Below the pieces are notes generated by a model that made no database searches, was not told the origin of the DNA, and was given only the letters and a program-made list of their open reading frames with translations. Made by a program: the position numbers and the translations under genes. DNA of 64,000 nucleotides from Candidatus Parcubacteria bacterium (GTDB lineage: Bacteria > Patescibacteriota > Minisyncoccia > Phycocordibacterales > Zambryskibacteraceae). Positions 4,631 through 63,155 of this stretch are shown piece by piece. Numbering within the stretch: position 1 is the stretch's first letter; each line of letters begins with the position of its first letter. The stretch covers positions 31,009 through 95,008 of the forward strand of contig JAIFWP010000003.1 of the NCBI GenBank assembly GCA_019661785.1. The letters run 5' to 3'.

Positions 4631-4694
4631 TTCTGTTTATTATCTTTGAATTTTAGCATGAATTCTGCGTATGTTTATAGGCCTATTTTAGAGC

Positions 4695-4723
4695 TTGACA
4701 AATGGCTATATTTATGATAGTAT
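4695..4723 (+). promoter_or_regulatory. Sigma70-type promoter: TTGACA, 17 nt spacer, extended -10 TGA-TAGTAT. Member of a repeated promoter family.
   Basis: Sequence is cTTGACAaatggctatatttaTGATAGTATataagaag. The stretch TATGATAGTATATAAGAAG is identical to the promoter at 52271. Confidence 0.55.
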
Positions 4724-4784
4724 ATAAGAAGATGTACGGTTCGGGGATTTCCCCCGGAACGGAACTCCTGTACTGGAGCTTACA

Positions 4785-5240
4785 ATGCCGAGCAACGAGA
4801 TTAACCTGAGCAGCTCAGTCCTCACTTCCTTCGAGGTTGTGCGCAAGGCGCTGGAGATTCGCTACGGAGCTCAAATCAGCTTCGTAGGTTCGATGAAAAT
4901 CACGCCCGACGATCCGGACAGAACGCCCGGCTCGAAACGCCAGGTCGTTCTACAGACCAAGTTCGACACGATGAAGGGGACCCTTCGTATCATGGTCGAA
5001 CTGGGACTCAGCGCAATCGTGTTCCTCGAGTATATCGACTGCGCATGGCGCTTCGATTACGCCGAGGTGCGGGTGCAGAATCCGAACGACCAATCGGCAC
5101 GCACCGACGGGAGCTACCGGTACACTGTTTGCTATGCGAAGGAGCGCCAGTATGACACCCATCTGTTTGTCGGAGACCCGCTAGACAACATCAGCTATCG
5201 CGGCCATGATATGAGCGATAGGGTCGAAGTGAAGTGGTGA
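4785..5240 (+). CDS. Hypothetical protein (151 aa)
   Basis: ORF with GGAG 6 nt upstream of the ATG. A strong promoter lies upstream and an intrinsic terminator downstream. No recognisable domain. Confidence 0.55.
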   Translation: MPSNEINLSSSVLTSFEVVRKALEIRYGAQISFVGSMKITPDDPDRTPGSKRQVVLQTKFDTMKGTLRIMVELGLSAIVFLEYIDCAWRFDYAEVRVQNPNDQSARTDGSYRYTVCYAKERQYDTHLFVGDPLDNISYRGHDMSDRVEVKW

Positions 5241-6456: not shown

Positions 6457-7176
6457 ATGGAGAAAGAACAAAACGTCCACACTCTGACCAAAGAGGAGAT
6501 ACAGGGCGTCGCCAGAGAGCGCGTGGAGGAAATAGCCAAGGAGTTCAAGGCCGGATTCAAGTTCCTCGAGGACTACCCTAAGTCAGTAACCTTCTTCGGC
6601 TCATCTCTCATGAAGGAGGACAATCCTTATTGCCTCTCAGCCCGCAAGCTCGCAGGACGCATATCTACTGAACTTGGATACTCAGTGCTCACTGGTGGAG
6701 GTCCGGGCATCATGGAGGCAGCCAATCGAGGCGCGACTGAAGCCGGCGGCACCTCGCTCGCCATCACTATCAAGCTCCCTACGCCTCAGACCATAAACCA
6801 TTTCATAACTAGTGAGATAGACCCTTACTACTTCTTCGTGAGGAAGGTCTGTCTCGGCTTCTCGGCAGAGGCTTTCATCTTCTACCCAGGAGGCTTTGGC
6901 ACTCTCGACGAGTTCTTCGAGATAATCACTCTTATACAGACAAGGAAGATTGTTGGCGTGCCTCTTATCTGCGTCGGTAGCGACTACTGGAAGTCTCTTG
7001 AGCGCTTCATGCAAGCTGAGCTCCTCTCTCGAGGCACGATACTCCCTGAGGACCTCCTCTTATACAACATCACTGACGACCACGACGAAATACTTGAGAT
7101 TATCAAGAAAGCTCCTATAAGAAACGGTCTGGAATTCCACCTTAATGCTGAAGTGCCTACCTCGCCTACAGTCTAA
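6457..7176 (+). CDS. LOG family protein (cytokinin riboside 5'-monophosphate phosphoribohydrolase-like, TIGR00730 type)
   Basis: Contains [14 protein letters not shown] and PGGFGTLDE. Start placed at MEKEQNV, since the upstream extension is hydrophobic junk overlapping the divergent gene. Confidence 0.8.
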
Positions 7177-7178
7177 AT

Positions 7179-7694
7179 TTACTTAAAGAAGATGGGTACT
7201 GCGTAGTATCGCGCGTTGGCCTCAAGGCCTGAAGGATTGTCATTCATGAAGACGACTGCACCCTCGTTTGAAGTATTGCCGGAGAACACAATCGTACCAG
7301 TGAAGGGTACCGTGCCAGTAGCCTGCATCCAATCCCCCTGCGCGGTAATGGTGCCGCGGCCAAGGACCTTACCGTTCGTGTCTATGACCATGACAGGAGC
7401 CGATGCCTCGAAGTACCATCCGCCCTTGGCTCTGCCCGTAACAGTGAGAGGAGAGGTTATCTTGTCGCCGAGCTTGGGCTTAGTTATCACTATGTCCCCT
7501 GCGCTTGCCTGTGTGCCGACTATAGGGAGTATAGGCGTGCCTTTGACAGCGCCATTGTTGCCAGATGATGGGGTCGAGGTAGCTGTCTGGCCATCATCTA
7601 TAGCATCCACAGAATCTCCCCTCTGGCTGTATATAAGCCATCCCAAAAGCACTACCACTACGAGCGCAACAACCCAAACGACGGATTTTTTCAT
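7179..7694 (-). CDS. Secreted or membrane-anchored protein, GerMN/Gmad2-like immunoglobulin-like domain (tentative)
   Basis: N-terminal TM/signal segment (VVWVVALVVVVLLGWLIY), a Thr/Gly-rich linker, then a beta-rich domain. Confidence 0.45.
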   Translation of the reverse strand: MKKSVVWVVALVVVVLLGWLIYSQRGDSVDAIDDGQTATSTPSSGNNGAVKGTPILPIVGTQASAGDIVITKPKLGDKITSPLTVTGRAKGGWYFEASAPVMVIDTNGKVLGRGTITAQGDWMQATGTVPFTGTIVFSGNTSNEGAVVFMNDNPSGLEANARYYAVPIFFK

Positions 7695-24050: not shown

Positions 24051-24911
24051 ATGCAGGATATTCGAACTTTGAAAAAAACCGACTGGCCGGAACTCCTGCA
24101 GGAGATTAATGACCCGCCGGAGAAGCTCCGCCTCTGGGGCAATCCTCCTATAGAAGGCAACAAGCTCCTTGCTGTGGTCGGCTCGCGCAAGTACACCTCG
24201 TATGGCTCAGAGGTTTGCGACTCTCTTATACAAGGGCTCGTTGGTTACCCTATTACCATAGTCAGCGGCCTTGCTCTCGGCATAGACGCCATCGCGCATC
24301 GTGCCGCGCTCCGCGCCGGCCTCCAGACCATAGCCATCCCAGGCTCTGGTCTCTCGACTACAGTCCTCCACCCTCACTCACACAGAGACTTGGCTGGAGA
24401 GATTGTCGATGCTGGCGGCGGACTTATGACTGAGTACGACGATGAGATGCCCTCAGGCGCATGGGCCTTCCCCCGCCGCAACAGGATTATGGCCGGCATG
24501 TGCCACGCTACACTCGTCATCGAAGCGGAGAAGAAGTCCGGCACCCTCATCACCTCTCGCCTAGCTACCGAATATAATAGAGAGGTTGGCGCTGTCCCTG
24601 GCCCTATCACATCCTCAACCTCCGAGGGCCCGCACATGCTTATACGCCTTGGCGCGGCGCTCATACGCGACTCTCACGACCTGCTAGAGCTCCTAGGACT
24701 CCGCAGTGAGGGTCATGACACTCTATTTAATACCGACGACCTCACAGATGAGGAAAGGGTCTTTATTAAGATACTCGACAACCCCTGCGAGCGGGATGTC
24801 CTCATCCGCACCTCGAAGTTTGATATCTCCAGGGCAAATGCAGTCCTATCACTACTAGAAATCAAAGGCCTGATTGTTGAACAACTCGGCGAAGTACGAA
24901 AGACATTTTGA
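24051..24911 (+). CDS. dprA: DNA processing protein DprA (Smf)
   Basis: Rossmann-like DprA motifs VVGSRKYTSYG and GLALGIDAIAH. Confidence 0.85.
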   Translation: MQDIRTLKKTDWPELLQEINDPPEKLRLWGNPPIEGNKLLAVVGSRKYTSYGSEVCDSLIQGLVGYPITIVSGLALGIDAIAHRAALRAGLQTIAIPGSGLSTTVLHPHSHRDLAGEIVDAGGGLMTEYDDEMPSGAWAFPRRNRIMAGMCHATLVIEAEKKSGTLITSRLATEYNREVGAVPGPITSSTSEGPHMLIRLGAALIRDSHDLLELLGLRSEGHDTLFNTDDLTDEERVFIKILDNPCERDVLIRTSKFDISRANAVLSLLEIKGLIVEQLGEVRKTF

Positions 24912-30204: not shown

Positions 30205-30351
30205 GGGTGATGAAGGAATCGGTCACAGGTCCTCGCGTACTGCGAGGCCTGCGACCCCGCCTCGCGCCGTCGCGCTCCGGCTTTCGATTCCTTATCGCCG
30301 CGCGCTGATGTTCCACTCATAAGCCGTTATAGGCTTCTTCGTGGATCATTG
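30205..30351 (-). repeat. tRNA-Trp-associated element: spacer, conserved core (GAAAGCCGGAGCGCGACGGCGCGAGGCGGGGUCGCAGG), hairpin, ACCUGUGACC, then a duplicated 3' end of tRNA-Trp
   Basis: Coordinates 30205-30227 repeat the last ~18 nt of tRNA-Trp (CGATTCCTTCATCACCCA versus the tRNA's CGATTCCTTCATCGCCCG). The core is shared with the elements at 62899-63014 and 40416-40503. Confidence 0.6.
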
Positions 30352-30422
30352 CGGGCGATGAAGGAATCGAACCCTCGCCAGCGGTTTTGGAGACCGCTGT
30401 TCTACCACTAAACTAATCGCCC
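30352..30422 (-). tRNA. tRNA-Trp (anticodon CCA)
   Basis: Acceptor GGGCGAT/ATCGCCC, anticodon loop CUCCAAA, discriminator G. Confidence 0.85.
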
Positions 30423-40415: not shown

Positions 40416-40503
40416 CAAGTGCGGGGCACTTGTGCAAGCCGGAGGCCGACGGGCCGAGGCGGGGTCGCACAAATCCCGAGCACGGGATTATGTGTGACCA
40501 CAT
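40416..40503 (+). repeat. Third copy of the tRNA-associated conserved element, here filling the tRNA-Lys to tRNA-Leu spacer
   Basis: AAGCCGGAG-GCCGACGGGCC-GAGGCGGGGUCGCA-caaAUCCCGagcaCGGGAUua-UGUGUGACC. The core is conserved and both hairpins are maintained by compensatory changes relative to the other two copies. Confidence 0.55.
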
Positions 40504-43373: not shown

Positions 43374-43751
43374 CTAGTTAACTGTAGGGTTGATGCCAGG
43401 AACAGTAGGAAGCGAGCCGGATGAACCGCCAGTGCCGATACCAAGCGAGCTAGCTACGAACTTGACGAGGCCCCAGACTGCGACCATCACGAAGAGGGTG
43501 ACGATGCCGTAAATCATAATCTTCTTGCCCTCTTCCTTAGCCTCTTCGTTGCCTGCATTGAAGATGAACTTCATGAGACCCCAGAAGAATCCGAGGAGCG
43601 CAAGACCTACTACTATAGGAAGTGCTGTACCTACCCATCCAGCGACCGTGGTCATGAATGCGCTAAGGCCGGTCGTAGTGTTGGTAGTGGTTATCTGTGC
43701 CATGGCCAAACCCGGAGCGAGAGCGGCAAGAGCGATAATAATCTTTTTCAT
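43374..43751 (-). CDS. Small secreted/membrane protein, paralog 2 (signal peptide plus two hydrophobic helices; TrbC/VirB2 pilin-like)
   Basis: Signal peptide ..GLAMA|Q, core LLGFFWGLMKFIFNAGNEEAKEEGKKIMIYGIVTLFVMVAVWGLVKFV. Confidence 0.6.
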   Translation of the reverse strand: MKKIIIALAALAPGLAMAQITTTNTTTGLSAFMTTVAGWVGTALPIVVGLALLGFFWGLMKFIFNAGNEEAKEEGKKIMIYGIVTLFVMVAVWGLVKFVASSLGIGTGGSSGSLPTVPGINPTVN

Positions 43752-47690: not shown

Positions 47691-47830
47691 TAAAAGAAAC
47701 TGAAGAATTATCTTGCGTCACGGAAAGAGCCGAAAGGATTTTCGAGCCTCTCGCAGCGCGACTGGCGCGAGAGAGCGAAATTTTCACCAGAAAATTATCG
47801 CGAGGCTAAGAAAATCTTTTCGGCTCTGAA

Positions 47831-57605: not shown

Positions 57606-57987
57606 CAGAGACGATAACAAGGGCGCCAAGATAAGCGACGAGTTAGTCGGGCTAGCCAAAGATGCTGTCCTCGGCAACGCGTACGAGCTCTCTCTCGTCT
57701 TCTGCGGCAACAACCTCTCTCAAGAACTGAATCGTACCTACAGAGGCAAGGACAAGCCGACTAACGTACTCGCCTTCCCGCTATCGAAGACCTCAGGCGA
57801 GATATTCATAAACACCGAGCATTTGGACGGATTCAGAGTCGAGGAACTGCTTGTCCACGCACTCCTCCATTTGAAAGGAATGCTCCACGGCGCTAAAATG
57901 GAGAGCGAGGAAAAACGATTTTTAAAATTACTCTTTAATGGCACGACCACTCTCAGTCGGGATAGACATAGGCAGCCAAAACGTTAA
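57571..57987 (+). CDS. ybeY: Endoribonuclease YbeY
   Basis: Zinc-binding H..H.LHL.G..H motif (VHALLHLKGMLHG). Confidence 0.75.
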   Translation: MNSKSLAAKGDNRDDNKGAKISDELVGLAKDAVLGNAYELSLVFCGNNLSQELNRTYRGKDKPTNVLAFPLSKTSGEIFINTEHLDGFRVEELLVHALLHLKGMLHGAKMESEEKRFLKLLFNGTTTLSRDRHRQPKR

Positions 57988-59140
57988 GGTCGTCATCGCC
58001 CATGAGATAGAGGAGAACGGGCGCATAGTGCCAAAGGTCATCGGTCAGGCCACTGCTGAGACCAAGGGCCTCCACAGGGGCTATATATTGAATCCCTCTG
58101 AGGCCTCTAGGAGCGTCCGCTTAGCCATAGACAAGGCGGAGAAGGCCGCAGGGGTCACTGTGAAGCGCGCCTTCGTCTCAGTAGGCGGAGTAGGCCTAGG
58201 GAGCGCCGTAGCCTCTGGCTCGGTAGCTATAGCAAGGGCTGACCTCGAGGTCACCAACCTCGACCTGGAGAGCGCCCAGGAGGCTGCCGAGGCCGCCATC
58301 CCCGAGGCGCTCATTTTAAACAGGAAGGTCATCAACACTATCCCCCTCCTCACGCTCCTAGACGGCAAGCCTGCTCTTGGGCGCATTGAGGGCATGAAGG
58401 CTGGCAAGCTAGAGGTTAAAGTGCTTTTCATAACATGCCTCGAGCATCACTTGGAGGACCTTATACGCGTAGTAGAGGGAGCCGGAGTCGAGGTGGTCGA
58501 CGTTGTAGCCGCACCCATAGCTGCCTCCTTCGTGACTCTGTCTAAGAAGCAGAAGCGCGCCGGCTGCGCACTCATAAATATTGGAGCCGAGACACTCTCA
58601 CTCGTTGTCTTCGAGAACTCGAACCCCATCTCGCTCGAGGTCTTCGAGATGGGCGGAGCCGACGTGACGAACGACATGGCTCTCGGCTTGAAGATATCCC
58701 TTGAGGAAGCTGAGTCCGTTAAACTCGGCTCCTGGACTCGGAGCGACTATCCGAAGAAGAAGATTGAGGACCTTATCGGACGCAGATTGTCTGACATGTT
58801 CGACCTCGTGGCCGCACACTTGAAGAGGATAGGCCGACACTCTCTCCTCCCCGCCGGTATCGTCATCACTGGCGGCAGCGCCGGACTTGCCGGACTGCGC
58901 GACTTCGCCGTTGAGGTGCTGAAGCTCCCTGCTAAAGTGGGCGAGATCCACTTCGGCGAGGAGGAGAAGTATGCTACCAAAGACCTCCCTTGGTCGGTCG
59001 CCTACGGGCTAGCTATAGTGGGCTTCAACTCCGACAATGAGCAGGGTCTCGTGGGCCAGAGAGGTATGGACAAGCTCGCCGAAGGCGGCAAGAAGGGTCT
59101 CCGCACCCTCACCCACTGGTTCAACAAGTTCATACCCTAG
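57938..59140 (+). CDS. ftsA: Cell division protein FtsA
   Basis: Actin-like ATPase (VGIDIGSQNVKVV, INIGAETLSLVVF, ITGGSAGLAGL). Confidence 0.9.
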   Translation: MARPLSVGIDIGSQNVKVVIAHEIEENGRIVPKVIGQATAETKGLHRGYILNPSEASRSVRLAIDKAEKAAGVTVKRAFVSVGGVGLGSAVASGSVAIARADLEVTNLDLESAQEAAEAAIPEALILNRKVINTIPLLTLLDGKPALGRIEGMKAGKLEVKVLFITCLEHHLEDLIRVVEGAGVEVVDVVAAPIAASFVTLSKKQKRAGCALINIGAETLSLVVFENSNPISLEVFEMGGADVTNDMALGLKISLEEAESVKLGSWTRSDYPKKKIEDLIGRRLSDMFDLVAAHLKRIGRHSLLPAGIVITGGSAGLAGLRDFAVEVLKLPAKVGEIHFGEEEKYATKDLPWSVAYGLAIVGFNSDNEQGLVGQRGMDKLAEGGKKGLRTLTHWFNKFIP

Positions 59141-62060: not shown

Positions 62061-62762
62061 CTACTTGCCAGTGCCGCTGCTGCTGCTGCTCTTTACCCTG
62101 ATGTTGATGCAATACGGCTGCCGCCAGTCCCTGTTGACGAACATGCCTTCAGCCATGCAGGCTGCTCCAGCCAGGGCTCCCCACTTGGCCAAGCCCTTCC
62201 AGTGAATACCGCCGCGGTCCGTGAGAGTCTTCGTCACGTACACCGTGTCGTAGTGGGTCTGCCATACGATAGTGGTATCGTGGACGAAAACCGGGAACGG
62301 CACGCTGTCGATGCGCGCTATCTGTCTCTCCGTTTTCACGACAGGCACGTTCTGTGACGGCTGAGCAACTCGAGTAACGGCCGACTTGGTGCCCACCGGT
62401 CGAGGTGTTGGCCTTGGCGTCGAGACTACAGGCAACTTTGCCGGCCCTTGCGTGAGATTCTGCTGAGCAAGCTGGAGCGCAACGATCTTCTTTTTGAGCG
62501 AGTCAGCCATGGTCTTGCAGGCCACCGCGCAGGCCGAGCCATTCTCATATGCCGTGACCTTCTGTCGAAGCGAGTCTGCAACCCTCTGGAGTGCTCGCTC
62601 CTGCTTGCACTGAGCCCCGAAGACGGCGCAGTAAGCAGAAGTATGTTTCTCCTCTTCGGCCTGCTGTGCCTTCTTGCTTGTGTCCTGAGCCCAGGTGTTG
62701 CTCGCTCCGATCACCGAAGCGAGGCACATGACGGCCGCCCAAACGTGAGTTCGGAGTCGCAT
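62061..62762 (-). CDS. Hypothetical secreted protein (signal peptide, Cys pairs, Pro-rich linker)
   Basis: Signal peptide MRLRTHVWAAVMCLASVIGASNTWA|Q. GC-rich. Confidence 0.5.
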   Translation of the reverse strand: MRLRTHVWAAVMCLASVIGASNTWAQDTSKKAQQAEEEKHTSAYCAVFGAQCKQERALQRVADSLRQKVTAYENGSACAVACKTMADSLKKKIVALQLAQQNLTQGPAKLPVVSTPRPTPRPVGTKSAVTRVAQPSQNVPVVKTERQIARIDSVPFPVFVHDTTIVWQTHYDTVYVTKTLTDRGGIHWKGLAKWGALAGAACMAEGMFVNRDWRQPYCINIRVKSSSSSGTGK

Positions 62763-62898
62763 TTCGATACCTCTGGTTGAGTTCCTATACTAGTGAGAAG
62801 ACCTTTCCGGGGCTCACCTTATCACGCCAAATGGCATGTGTAAATAGCCCTAGATTCCTTGTATATAAACGTATCGATGAGGTGCGACTTACCTACAA

Positions 62899-63014
62899 AT
62901 TGGCGGAAGAGGTGAGATTTGGTCACAGGTCTCGGCTTGCTAGCCAAGCCTGCGACCCCGCCTCGCGCCGCCGCGCTCCGGCTTTCAAATCGTCCTCGCA
63001 AACGGGTTTTGCTG
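62899..63014 (-). repeat. tRNA-Ser-associated element: conserved core plus hairpin plus ACCUGUGACC plus a duplicated tRNA-Ser 3' end including CCA
   Basis: 62901-62923 = CAAATCTCACCTCTTCCGCCA repeats the last 18 nt of tRNA-Ser. The core GAAAGCCGGAGCGCGGCGGCGCGAGGCGGGGTCGCAGG is about 95% identical to the copy at 30205-30351. Confidence 0.6.
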
Positions 63015-63101
63015 CGGAAGAGGTGAGATTTGAACTCACGGTAAGGTTGCCCCTACGCTGGTTTTCGAAACCAGTGCCTTAAACCACTCAGCCACTCTTC
63101 C
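63015..63101 (-). tRNA. tRNA-Ser (anticodon CGA), long variable arm
   Basis: Acceptor GGAAGAG/CTCTTCC, anticodon loop UUCGAAA, T-loop TTCAAAT, discriminator G. Confidence 0.85.
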
Positions 63102-63155
63102 AAGGCCATAACTCTAGCATTTTCGGCGAAAAATGTTAATATTTGCCCTGCTTAA

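Follow-up and report, generated by a model that had tools for sequence, protein, structure and literature searches.

Results

A structured element follows an intact tRNA-Ser gene

Near one end of the window, i.e. the whole 64,000-nucleotide stretch analysed, the minus strand carries an intact tRNA-Ser(CGA) gene, which is placed at 63015-63101 by Rfam (tRNA model, 57.5 bits) and at 63014-63101 by ARAGORN. The 3' part of the gene from C56 onward forms the first of two direct repeats (DR1, 63014-63032), and the gene encodes no CCA, reading G73-CAGC. Reading on along the same strand, the tRNA end is followed by a spacer, AGCAAAACCCGUUUGC (62998-63013), and a left arm, GAGGACGAUUUG (62986-62997), both delimited from the sequence. 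The spacer is short; at the equivalent position the tRNA-Trp copy described below has a 65-nt conserved hairpin (the S module). Within the left arm GAUUUG is the Watson-Crick complement of the T-loop/T-stem sequence CAAAUC and GAGG is the complement of CCUC, and the arm has two pairing options, either with the second repeat to give closing stem A or with DR1 inside the tRNA.

Beyond the left arm lies a GC-rich, 64-nt conserved core (62922-62985, minus strand), a three-way junction that is supported by a covariance model (88 bits, E=3.6e-29), by covariation and by a fold z-score of -5.1. It reads AAAGCC-GGA-(GCGC GGCG GCGC)-GA-GGC-GG-GGUCGCAGG-(CUUGGCU AGCA AGCCGAG)-A-CCUGUGAC; stem B contains a 3x2 purine internal loop, while stem C is marked by an invariant G.U pair, a bulged A and an AGCA loop. 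The second repeat (DR2, 62903-62921, minus strand) supplies the 3' strand of closing stem A, and repeat comparison identifies it as an exact 19-nt copy of tRNA positions 56-74. DR1 and DR2 match at 19/19 positions over an interval of 111 nt without an ORF, and span C56 of the T-loop, the T-stem 3' strand, the acceptor 3' strand, the discriminator G73 and C74. At the end of the repeat the downstream copy reads GCCA and the gene reads GCAG, i.e. a CCA is encoded after the DR2 discriminator (62901-62903, minus strand) that is absent from the functional gene and present in the insert-free tRNA-Ser genes of relatives.

All four segments quoted in a preliminary description of this locus were found, on the minus strand at 62991-62901. 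The duplication of the tRNA 3' part that it reported is indeed an exact direct repeat, but of 19 nt and not 21, and it was right to place the encoded CCA in the downstream copy alone. The distal hairpin was drawn incorrectly as CUUGGC-uag-CAAGCC; the register common to all copies is CUUGGCU-AGCA-AGCCGAG, with 7 bp and an AGCA loop, followed by the bulged A.

Further copies in the window

The locus had been described as a second copy of a tRNA-associated element, which holds: the window contains three strong copies, at tRNA-Ser, tRNA-Trp and tRNA-Lys, as well as one divergent copy, and further members of the family are found in other CPR genomes. The element is present at three of the window's 12 tRNA genes. 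The Trp copy (30205-30352, minus strand) lies 3' of tRNA-Trp and comprises DR2 (30205-30221), a core (30222-30285), a left arm (30285-30299) and the S hairpin (about 30300-30350). Its repeat matches at 16 of 17 positions (30205-30221 versus 30353-30369), the downstream repeat having one mutation that would break the acceptor stem. The earlier idea that the pseudo-3'-end might serve as an alternative tRNA 3' half finds no support in this mutated repeat, nor is such a role needed, because the upstream tRNA gene is intact.

The Lys copy (40417-40503, plus strand; core 40434-40498) occupies the entire 87-nt spacer between tRNA-Lys and tRNA-Leu. Its closing helix is built from the tRNA 3' terminus (GCACAAGUGC/GCACUUGUGC), the repeat consists of CACA only without T-arm duplication, and the core hairpin is GGCC-GACG-GGCC. 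The divergent fourth copy (47734-47819, plus strand; covariance model score 27.8 bits, E=1.6e-7) has the same two hairpin modules and a different closing stem, and is located between convergent genes with no tRNA link.

The core defines a covarying family in CPR bacteria

A scan with the core pattern, using one genome per species, matched at least 119 stretches, and nearly all of the matches listed come from CPR bacteria. Covariation was assessed on 111 distinct copies, which were drawn from over 100 assemblies of CPR/Patescibacteria. Two actinobacterial matches (L024 and L074) were rejected as chance, the rest of the motif being missing. The covariance model gave 134 hits at 100 loci with scores that are continuous from 101 to 20 bits. 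The core is near-identical across very deep CPR lineages, and many seemingly unoccupied tRNAs carry divergent variants. The outcome named beforehand as refuting the element, no further copies and no conservation in relatives, was clearly not what was observed.

Stems B and C are 96-99% paired in the 111 distinct copies, and over these homologues 90.6% of cells are paired, compared with 73% after shuffling and about 40% after sliding. Double-sided changes number 608 against 189 in shuffles, and none of 500 shuffles attained the observed value, which excludes a chance origin of the covariation and supports the earlier proposal that compensatory change here reflects selection on structure, at the RNA or the DNA level. 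The bulged A and the AGCA loop are conserved and one G.U pair is invariant in 111/111 copies, therefore it is one specific strand, the tRNA-sense strand, that folds. The closing helix also has variants in which tandem G.A replaces Watson-Crick pairing. A chance or trivial local duplication without wider significance has only the small size of the repeat in its favour, and is already refuted by the exact 19/19 match within 111 nt, by the three strong copies and one divergent copy in the window, by the at least 119 stretches in the genome scan and by the covariation controls; we see practically no prospect of its being correct.

Rfam 15, which covers small self-cleaving ribozymes, the tRNA clan and introns, was run over the whole window at gathering thresholds and reported tRNA genes only, and at E<=10 on positions 62700-63140 it placed nothing over the core and matched no ribozyme family or intron model. 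Comparison by eye with the hammerhead, twister, HDV-like and hairpin ribozyme cores revealed no conserved core that fits. A K-turn was likewise rejected, since the tandem G.A pairs of the stem B internal loop are accompanied by a bulge of just 1 nt. A literature search found no description of the element. It is a candidate for a new RNA family that Rfam 15 lacks.

Most copies sit at U55|C56 of tRNA and tmRNA genes

In 92 of 111 copies the element is of a T-loop type, the repeat starting at C56 directly after GUGAC, i.e. at U55|C56 of a tRNA or tmRNA gene, and a further seven copies use the acceptor 3' end. About 70 of 128 copies are found 11-90 nt 3' of a same-strand tRNA, with many different anticodons represented, and five lie 3' of tmRNA ends; the interval is usually 100-150 bp. 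All copies have (G)GTT before them, replaced by GGTG where the acceptor end is used. However, the TT is present even where the intact gene copy has other bases, and the 19-nt repeat is compatible with insertion both with and without target duplication. The dinucleotide CA after the discriminator was considered as the left end of the element and rejected, given that CA or CCA also comes next in unoccupied CPR tRNA genes.

Insert-free tRNA-Ser genes with the same T-arm and acceptor were observed on 15 metagenome contigs, with the CCA encoded. Furthermore, the CCA is confined to DR2 at six loci and the reverse pattern occurs at none. DR2 is accordingly interpreted as the gene's own original 3' end, displaced by the insert, and the extra downstream CCA would be present because that end came from a gene that once encoded it. 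Presence and absence between related genomes is observed directly at L120, an orthologous empty locus reached via homologues, which retains the order tRNA-Glu/tRNA-Ser(CGA)/NT5C and lacks the element, although its far flank differs. No empty allele with matching flanks was recovered, and an exact-sequence lookup of the neighbouring protein gave no record. Without a closely related, same-flank empty allele the insert boundaries can be placed anywhere in the 19-nt repeat, and a target duplication cannot be distinguished from an attP/attB-type identity segment.

Islands and prophages that integrate into tRNA and tmRNA genes by means of tyrosine integrases, with a T-loop sublocation, are documented in the Islander database (PMC4383910) and for mycobacteriophage Ms6 (PMC1762012). 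The CPR element resembles them in that it targets a tRNA or tmRNA gene in its 3' part and regenerates that gene, a 3' fragment from the T-loop is displaced as a direct repeat, the displaced fragment retains native features (here the encoded CCA) and the sublocation of the repeat start is canonical (C56 in 92/111, the acceptor 3' end in seven). It differs in being about 110-150 bp and not kilobases long, in lacking an integrase or any other gene, in having one core behind many tRNAs where an integrase normally serves one, in carrying the complement of its target and in having as its core a covarying single-strand fold. It is conceivable that the locus is the scar of a conventional island or prophage, DR1 and DR2 being attL and attR and the 111 bp what remained after cargo deletion; islands of tyrosine integrases are classically recognised by a regenerated tRNA together with a displaced 3' fragment that starts in the T-loop (PMC4383910; PMC1762012), and at L010 a matching repeat about 1 kb upstream encloses two tRNA genes. 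However, in 92 of the 111 distinct copies, found behind many different tRNAs, it is the same 64-nt core that borders the repeat, usually at an interval of only 100-150 bp, and independent deletions would not be expected to give this result. No integrase was found in the window or the loci, viral contigs scanned with the core pattern gave 0 hits, and the core covaries structurally, unlike integrase arm sites. A scar of this kind is therefore considered highly improbable.

Each left arm is complementary to its own tRNA, at up to 13-14 of 14 nt. Pairing is better with DR1 at six loci and with DR2 at three and is tied at seven, i.e. there is no preference. The arm is not a copy of the tRNA 5' strands, an origin that was rejected because at tRNA-Ser, where the T-loop is non-palindromic, the arm has the complement GAUUUG; the Trp arm bears an A at the G.U position of the T-stem, which is again the plain complement. 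How each copy came by an arm complementary to its own tRNA is not explained by insertion, and this counts against the insertion reading.

Genomic context, mobility and transcription

No enzyme gene is linked to the element. The window has 63 ORFs of 110 aa or more, and a Pfam scan of 60 of these detected no recombinase, transposase or reverse transcriptase, no HUH (Y1) transposase or RAYT was seen in the 64-kb window (the carriers' whole genomes being outside its scope), and ORF clustering over 117 loci yielded no cluster in more than nine loci and housekeeping families only. Neither a mobilising enzyme nor an excised form nor a recent transposition event was found. Some copies interrupt pseudo-copies of genes for tRNA-Ser, tRNA-Glu and 5S rRNA, and three of these copies run antisense to the 5S sequence; such sites suggest that insertion took place at the DNA level. 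Relatives also carry tandem arrays (L109, L100 and L087), that of L109 consisting of five units of 149 nt.

Copies are observed inside tRNA transcription units, promoter-like sites being located upstream of the tRNAs only and no terminators having been found. Co-transcription as a tRNA 3' trailer is inferred from this arrangement and was not observed. The GC skew profile carried no information on the orientation of the element relative to replication. Four copies linked to tRNA-Trp, of which those of the window and L103 share downstream sequence, have double-sided changes in 17 of 54 pairs, and compensatory change in orthologous copies points to selection in place; sequence comparison thus indicates that the fold is maintained by selection where the element sits. 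At L040 the repeat has decayed and the core is kept.

Such observations could also be those of a structured RNA module with a host function in CPR tRNA 3' trailers, not mobile today, whose repeat and complementary arm, required to form a closing helix, arose by local duplication. Such a module might serve polycistronic tRNA precursors as a signal for processing or spacing, or it might be a stable small RNA, capped by a tRNA minihelix, that binds a conserved CPR protein. A near-identical core and compensatory evolution of orthologous copies, as at tRNA-Trp, are what would be expected of a host-functional RNA, whereas a purely selfish repeat should decay, and to this extent they argue against insertion. 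The extreme conservation of the core across CPR classes, the strand-specific fold with its invariant G.U pair, AGCA loop and bulged A, the substitution of Watson-Crick pairs in the closing helix by tandem G.A, the core at L040 that outlasted its repeat, the divergent variants at many seemingly unoccupied tRNAs and the lack of a linked enzyme all speak for the same possibility. It is harder to reconcile with intact copies in pseudo-tRNA fragments or antisense in pseudo-5S genes, where a trailer role makes no sense, with the absence of the element at the orthologous L120 locus, at many tRNA genes of the same kind and at all but three of the 12 tRNA genes in the window, or with tandem arrays; moreover, a displaced native CCA end is the signature of insertion and not of a trailer evolving in place. 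A host-functional trailer is thus thought unlikely, but it remains a possibility of real weight.

Discussion

Here, a miniature, protein-less insertion element of about 110-150 bp that restores the tRNA gene it enters is put forward, with moderate confidence, as the best explanation of the locus; it would belong to CPR/Patescibacteria and be co-transcribed as a structured tRNA trailer, the transcription being an inference. According to this model, the element would insert between U55 and C56 of the T-loop of a tRNA or tmRNA. Insertion would leave the gene in working order, since positions 56-74 flank the insert on either side: the copy continuous with the tRNA body would complete the gene and the original 3' end, with its encoded CCA, would move to the far side as DR2. 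In the closing helix of this model, DR2 pairs with a sequence, carried by the element, that is complementary to the T-loop, T-stem and acceptor 3' strand, and the three-way junction folds on the tRNA-sense strand only. Entry is inferred to be a strand-specific event at the DNA level that probably takes place on single-stranded DNA or a hairpin, with an enzyme not linked to the element as the catalyst. Once transcribed, the element would probably be excised as a small stable RNA by tRNA-processing enzymes, because the closing helix mimics an acceptor/T-arm minihelix, although this excision is likewise inferred and has not been observed.

Alternatively, the core could act at the RNA level, as a novel small ribozyme or an intron-like RNA with cleavage or ligation activity at GUGAC|C56; it might, for instance, connect the tRNA body (through U55) with the 3' half downstream or reverse-insert into T-loops. 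The two junctions, U55|C56 and GUGAC|C56, are precise to a single nucleotide, the left arm is guide-like in pairing with the sequence 3' of the junction, a type 2 form has an upstream capped hairpin in place of the closing helix with the backbone open exactly at the junction, and the GACC at the core end could, as inferred from sequence, pair with the T-arm GGUU via U.G wobble. Yet no Rfam ribozyme family was matched even at E<=10, core sequences of the hammerhead, twister, hairpin and HDV-like ribozymes are absent, splicing is not needed since the upstream tRNA is already complete, and insertions antisense to 5S oppose an RNA-level target. Furthermore, no group II introns were detected in complete Patescibacteria genomes (PMC13011429), and a common source of reverse transcriptase is therefore missing. 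Overall, an RNA-level agent appears improbable.

A bolder version of the insertion model is offered as speculation that is unlikely to hold. The core may be the active part of a new kind of protein-less mobile element, as RNA or single-stranded DNA, in which a self-made acceptor/T-arm mimic is processed and tagged by RNase P, RNase Z and the CCA-adding enzyme and a programmable arm guides insertion at U55|C56. This would amount to guide-directed integration without an enzyme of its own, or to a new small ribozyme.

Much of bacterial diversity belongs to CPR/Patescibacteria, whose genomes are tiny and most of whose members have not been cultivated. The element is present at roughly one in four tRNA genes of the window and recurs in more than 100 species among the matches listed, and to our knowledge is the smallest example of the strategy of restoring a tRNA while displacing its 3' end, with no linked integrase. 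It accounts for the pseudo-3'-ends and stray CCA motifs by which tRNA annotation in CPR genomes can be misled, provides a sequence by which CPR DNA can be specifically recognised in metagenomes and may offer a handle on tRNA precursor processing in these reduced cells. If it is true that a programmable arm directs insertion, the element would also be of biotechnological interest.

REP/REPIN sequences with RAYT and the palindromic elements derived from IS200/IS605 are structured repeats mobilised in trans on single-stranded DNA. They are short, protein-less and multicopy, have strand-specific hairpins with conserved mismatches and bulges, and insert beside a short fixed sequence without classical duplication, the enzyme being encoded elsewhere. 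The CPR element is likewise short, protein-less and multicopy, its enzyme, if it has one, would be encoded elsewhere, and its hairpins are similarly strand-specific with conserved irregularities (the G.U pair in 111/111, the bulged A and AGCA), but the two hairpins are dissimilar to each other, the core is conserved across the superphylum and not within species, and the target is inside essential RNA genes that are restored. Introns in tRNA genes of the same host group are also RNA-structured insertions associated with tRNA genes; they interrupt the anticodon loop at 35/36 and self-splice, whereas the CPR element follows an intact tRNA. Group I introns are far longer than 64 nt, and the Ser locus does not qualify as one, with a complete tRNA-Ser (57.5 bits), an element of 64 nt and no match to an Rfam intron model.

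A similar position is taken by the distal repeats of Escherichia coli tyrT-tyrV, where the rtT transcript (RttR) is released by tRNA processing. In that control three units are spaced 178 nt apart, the last extending 19 nt into tyrV, with RttR annotated inside. As in the CPR element, the tRNA gene is followed directly by a unit of similar size, each unit ends with the last ~19 nt of the tRNA from the T-loop, and arrays are also present in the CPR relatives L109, L100 and L087. There is no similarity in sequence or structure, and Rfam, which includes an RtT family, found only tRNA in the region. The E. coli repeats are, as far as we know, confined to one enterobacterial locus, whereas the CPR element, with its strongly covarying three-way junction, is found behind many tRNAs in more than 100 species among the matches listed.

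Displacement of a former gene end behind tRNA-Ser

On the minus strand, 16 nt of spacer (62998-63013) separate tRNA-Ser(CGA) (63015-63101) from a left arm of 12 nt (GAGGACGAUUUG; 62986-62997). A GC-rich core of 64 nt (62922-62985) comes next, and then a direct repeat, DR2 (62903-62921). All of the sequence strings named in the preliminary description were found here, and the duplication of the tRNA 3' segment that it reported is real, although not over 21 nt: the exact identity covers 19 nt, tRNA positions 56-74 (63014-63032), with the two bases CA directly after it. The end of DR2 reads ...CCGCCA and that of the gene ...CCGCAG, so the downstream copy does contain a CCA that the tRNA-Ser gene lacks.

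Among loci from other genomes (L001-L119, recovered by a scan for the core), CCA is encoded by 9/76 occupied tRNA genes, 9/40 downstream repeats and 38/133 unoccupied tRNA genes; six loci have it in the repeat but not in the gene, and none shows the reverse. A metagenome scan with the 5' side of the T-arm linked to ...CCGCCA recovered 15 contigs, each with a complete tRNA-Ser, an encoded CCA and no element, and three of these genes are tRNA-Ser(CGA) almost identical to that of the window. At the orthologous locus L120, the same divergent tRNA-Glu/tRNA-Ser(CGA) pair lies beside a 75%-identical NT5C gene, the element is absent and the next gene starts 19 nt after tRNA-Ser. Together, these data indicate that the element is an insertion, present or absent by lineage, and that DR2 with its CCA is the former end of the gene, which explains a CCA without counterpart in tRNA-Ser itself. 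In the tRNA genes of these genomes (L001-L119 and the window), occupied or not, the discriminator is mostly followed by CA or CCA; in 120 unoccupied genes the triplets include CAA (35), CCA (34), CAG (13) and CAT (11). This may represent a partial encoded CCA, and it may be relevant to 3'-end maturation in CPR.

Copies within the window

A pattern search followed by a covariance model of the core (R1) located three strong copies in the window (88-90 bits, E about 1e-29), all on the tRNA-sense strand and directly 3' of tRNA-Ser, tRNA-Trp (core 30222-30285, repeat 16/17) and tRNA-Lys (core 40434-40498), in agreement with the preliminary description as to the tRNA-Trp copy. The Lys copy fills the 87-nt tRNA-Lys/tRNA-Leu spacer entirely, ending 4 nt before tRNA-Leu, and its closing helix is built from the extreme 3' end of the tRNA, not from the T-arm. 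A divergent fourth copy (47734-47819, plus strand; 27.8 bits, E=1.6e-7) is flanked by convergent genes and has gyrA downstream and no tRNA next to it. It retains the GCGC-GACU-GGCGC hairpin and a second, AU-rich one that has a bulged A and whose loop is ACCA, both enclosed by a different, long closing stem.

A covarying three-way junction

Each copy folds as a three-way junction. In stem A the two flanks pair with each other, the left arm with the sequence directly after GUGAC. Stem B combines GCC/GGC with a 3x2 internal loop of purines and a hairpin of 4 bp capped by a GNCG loop. Stem C has GGUCGCNNN/NNNGUGAC(C), then a single bulged A and a variable stem of 7 bp that ends in an AGCA loop. 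The distal hairpin of the tRNA-Ser copy had been drawn in another register and is corrected here to CUUGGCU-AGCA-AGCCGAG with a bulged A, a register common to every other copy.

Across 111 distinct copies aligned (A2), pairing in the named structure stands at 90.6%, against 73% when shuffled and about 40% when slid, and reaches 96-99% in inner stem B and stem C. Double-sided changes number 608, compared with 189 in shuffles, none of 500 of which reaches the observed value, bearing out the suggestion that compensatory change reflects selection on structure. Outer stem B also covaries in divergent members, where GCC/GGC becomes GGC/GCC, GAC/GUC or ACC/GGU. One G.U pair of stem C is invariant (111/111 copies) even though the extraction permitted G-C there. 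It follows that only the tRNA-sense strand, whether RNA or single-stranded DNA, adopts the fold.

The left arm matches its own tRNA

The left arm is the Watson-Crick complement of the 56-6x/7x segment of its own tRNA. An origin as a copy of the tRNA 5' strands is ruled out by two of the window arms: GAUUUG of the Ser arm complements the non-palindromic T-loop sequence CAAAUC, and the Trp arm places an A opposite T-stem U63, a G.U-pair base in the tRNA. About 70-87% of copies have the first 7-8 arm positions paired, and T-loop position 59 shows specific covariation (0.78 in own pairs against 0.42 in permuted ones). In some copies, L107, L114, L088 and L044 among them, the match extends to 12-14 of 14 nt. 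Some copies have tandem G.A pairs in place of two Watson-Crick pairs, as in GGACGAG/CGAGUCC. With the acceptor part, complementarity is greater for a copy's own tRNA than for permuted tRNAs, by a modest yet significant margin (44% against 23% reach -8 kcal/mol or below; p=0.007). Since the real tRNA segment and the displaced copy are equally good partners for the arm, and the left arm with the AA of GAAA makes an 11-nt match to the Trp T-arm, two mutually exclusive hairpins are possible. How an arm matched to its own tRNA arises is unexplained by any test run; snap-back synthesis or quasi-palindrome template switching can only be offered as speculation.

In some copies the stretch from the tRNA end to the left arm contains a conserved hairpin, the S module (CAAUGAUCC...GAAGA-stem-loop-stem-UNUGA...AUCAUUG). 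It lies at 30300-30350 (minus strand) in the window and recurs in L103, L078, L022, L001, L031, L036, L042, L055, L081, L087 and L088, marking a subfamily behind Trp, Ser and Val tRNAs.

Family and insertion sites

Scanning one genome per species with the pattern AAGCCGGAG-N10-14-GAGGCGGGGTCGC matched at least 119 stretches. The matches listed are nearly all from Patescibacteria/CPR, including Saccharibacteria, Paceibacterota, Kaiser-, Nomura-, Taylor- and Berkelbacteria; two actinobacterial matches were rejected as chance. Carriers L005 and L070 are labelled Elusimicrobiales and Nanoarchaeia instead, which could reflect mis-binning or horizontal transfer. R1 gave 134 matches in 100 loci (each up to 8 kb) with scores continuous from 101 to 20 bits. 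Divergent versions lie behind several tRNAs first taken as unoccupied. No Rfam 15 family matches the element, nor is it described in the literature searched. The initial observation is thus confirmed, and the family is larger than was then known: a CPR-wide family, new to Rfam 15 and the literature searched, of miniature tRNA-restoring insertions around a strongly covarying 64-nt three-way junction.

Among the matches listed, about 70 of 128 strict-pattern copies have a tRNA 11-90 nt upstream on the same strand, and these tRNAs have many different anticodons and represent 15 amino-acid types. Five copies (L033, L063, L072, L077 and L079) follow the tRNA-like 3' end of tmRNA (...GGGGGUUCGAUUCCCCCCAUCUCCACA); in L072 and L077 an extra hairpin divides the left arm, and arm and repeat mimic the acceptor stem and T-stem separately. 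In 92/111 distinct copies the sequence after GUGAC begins at C56 of the T-loop, and the repeat comprises 17-24 nt of the upstream gene, to the discriminator plus CA, or to CCA where the gene encodes it. The acceptor 3' end is used by 7/111, including the window Lys copy.

The remaining pattern, in 12/111 copies, is a local hairpin just upstream of AAGCC in place of the closing helix. These copies lie inside pseudo-copies of the tRNA-Ser 5' part, in the T-loop of a pseudo-tRNA-Glu and, once sense and three times antisense, in partial 5S rRNA pseudo-copies immediately downstream of the real 5S gene (L021 565-760; L105 about 7100-7300; L069 about 4650-4900; L091 about 2500-2700). The antisense insertions show target choice to operate on DNA and not on host RNA. 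(G)GTT always precedes these copies, even where the intact gene has other bases, and by inference from sequence the TT seems to belong to the element.

Other small insertions also occur. A conserved mini-hairpin, GAAAGYGUACUCRC, separates C56 from G57 in the downstream repeat, right after GUGAC-C, in at least nine species (L022, L054, L056, L064, L073, L084, L101, L106 and L117). Pseudo-copies beside intact tRNA-Glu and tRNA-Leu genes in L037 (about 2290-2750, minus) and L019 (about 2300-2720, minus) bear several further small hairpins, only in the D-loop, variable loop and T-loop, and L019 has serial partial tRNA 3' copies, each with a different T-loop hairpin; other small palindromic elements appear to use the same sites. 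In L010 (440-1660) the repeat matches tRNA-Arg(TCT) about 1 kb away, the interval before the core holding about 850 nt without a convincing ORF, tRNA-His and tRNA-Arg(TCG), and the whole may be a larger composite insertion.

Mobility, selection and expression

Presence or absence among related genomes, pseudo-gene insertions in both orientations and tandem arrays are signs of mobility. The arrays, in L109 (3551-4290; five units of 149 nt), L100 (935-1160; two of 131 nt) and L087 (3313-3540; two of 149 nt), consist of units that each end with a tRNA 3' segment. No integrase, transposase or reverse transcriptase was found among the 60 of 63 window ORFs of at least 110 aa that were scanned, those identifiable all being housekeeping (MreB, aminoacyl-tRNA synthetases, DprA, topoisomerase I, GyrA, FtsZ and ClpB, for example). 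Across 117 loci no protein is widely shared, the commonest clusters, also housekeeping, occurring in only nine, and the core is absent from 2.9 million viral contigs.

Four tRNA-Trp-linked copies (window, L103, L078 and L022) all keep the core and the S module, here a hairpin of 65 nt, and L103 has the window's downstream sequence. In these copies 17/54 predicted pairs are altered on both sides and the S module covaries; in L040 the repeat has decayed (5/20 positions) and the core is nearly intact. Both the compensatory change and the retained L040 core are signs of selection in place.

Promoter-like hexamers were found upstream of tRNA-Lys and tRNA-Ser only, no terminator-like site was found between a tRNA and its element, and the Lys copy fills its spacer. 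On these grounds the element almost certainly belongs to the tRNA precursor, an inference from sequence features, transcription not having been observed. The acceptor/T-arm minihelix is recognised by RNase P, RNase Z and the CCA-adding enzyme, and since the closing helix of the element resembles this minihelix, tRNA-processing enzymes would be expected to release the element as a small RNA.

Relation to known systems

Three known systems follow a similar logic. Islands that integrate into tRNA genes interrupt the gene, make it whole again with sequence of their own and leave the displaced 3' fragment behind as a marker (PMC4383910), and attB of phage Ms6 lies in the T-loop (PMC1762012). The element is alike in its repeat and T-loop boundary but lacks the integrase and kilobase size that define such islands. 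The same architecture, without homology, is found in the distal repeats of E. coli tyrT-tyrV, where three units are spaced 178 nt apart, the last extends 19 nt into tyrV and the RttR small RNA is annotated inside; the tandem arrays of L109, L100 and L087 recall these 178-nt repeats. To our knowledge, these E. coli repeats do not occur outside a single enterobacterial locus. REP/REPIN and IS200/IS605-derived elements, which are mobilised in trans and consist of short hairpins specific to one strand, resemble the element in kind only. The recently described group I introns of Patescibacteria tRNAs are different, being located in the anticodon loop (PMC13011429). The element is filed with tRNA-gene-targeting insertions and structured bacterial repeats, as a variant not described before; a less likely possibility is that it is something new in kind, for example a guide-directed mobile RNA/DNA without a protein, or a small ribozyme of a new type.

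The window also encodes DprA (24051-24911, plus), a type IV secretion-system pilin-like protein (43374-43751, minus) and a PilM/FtsA-like protein (57938-59140, plus). These fit the DNA-uptake lifestyle proposed for CPR and are relevant to a possible spread of filled tRNA alleles through transformation.
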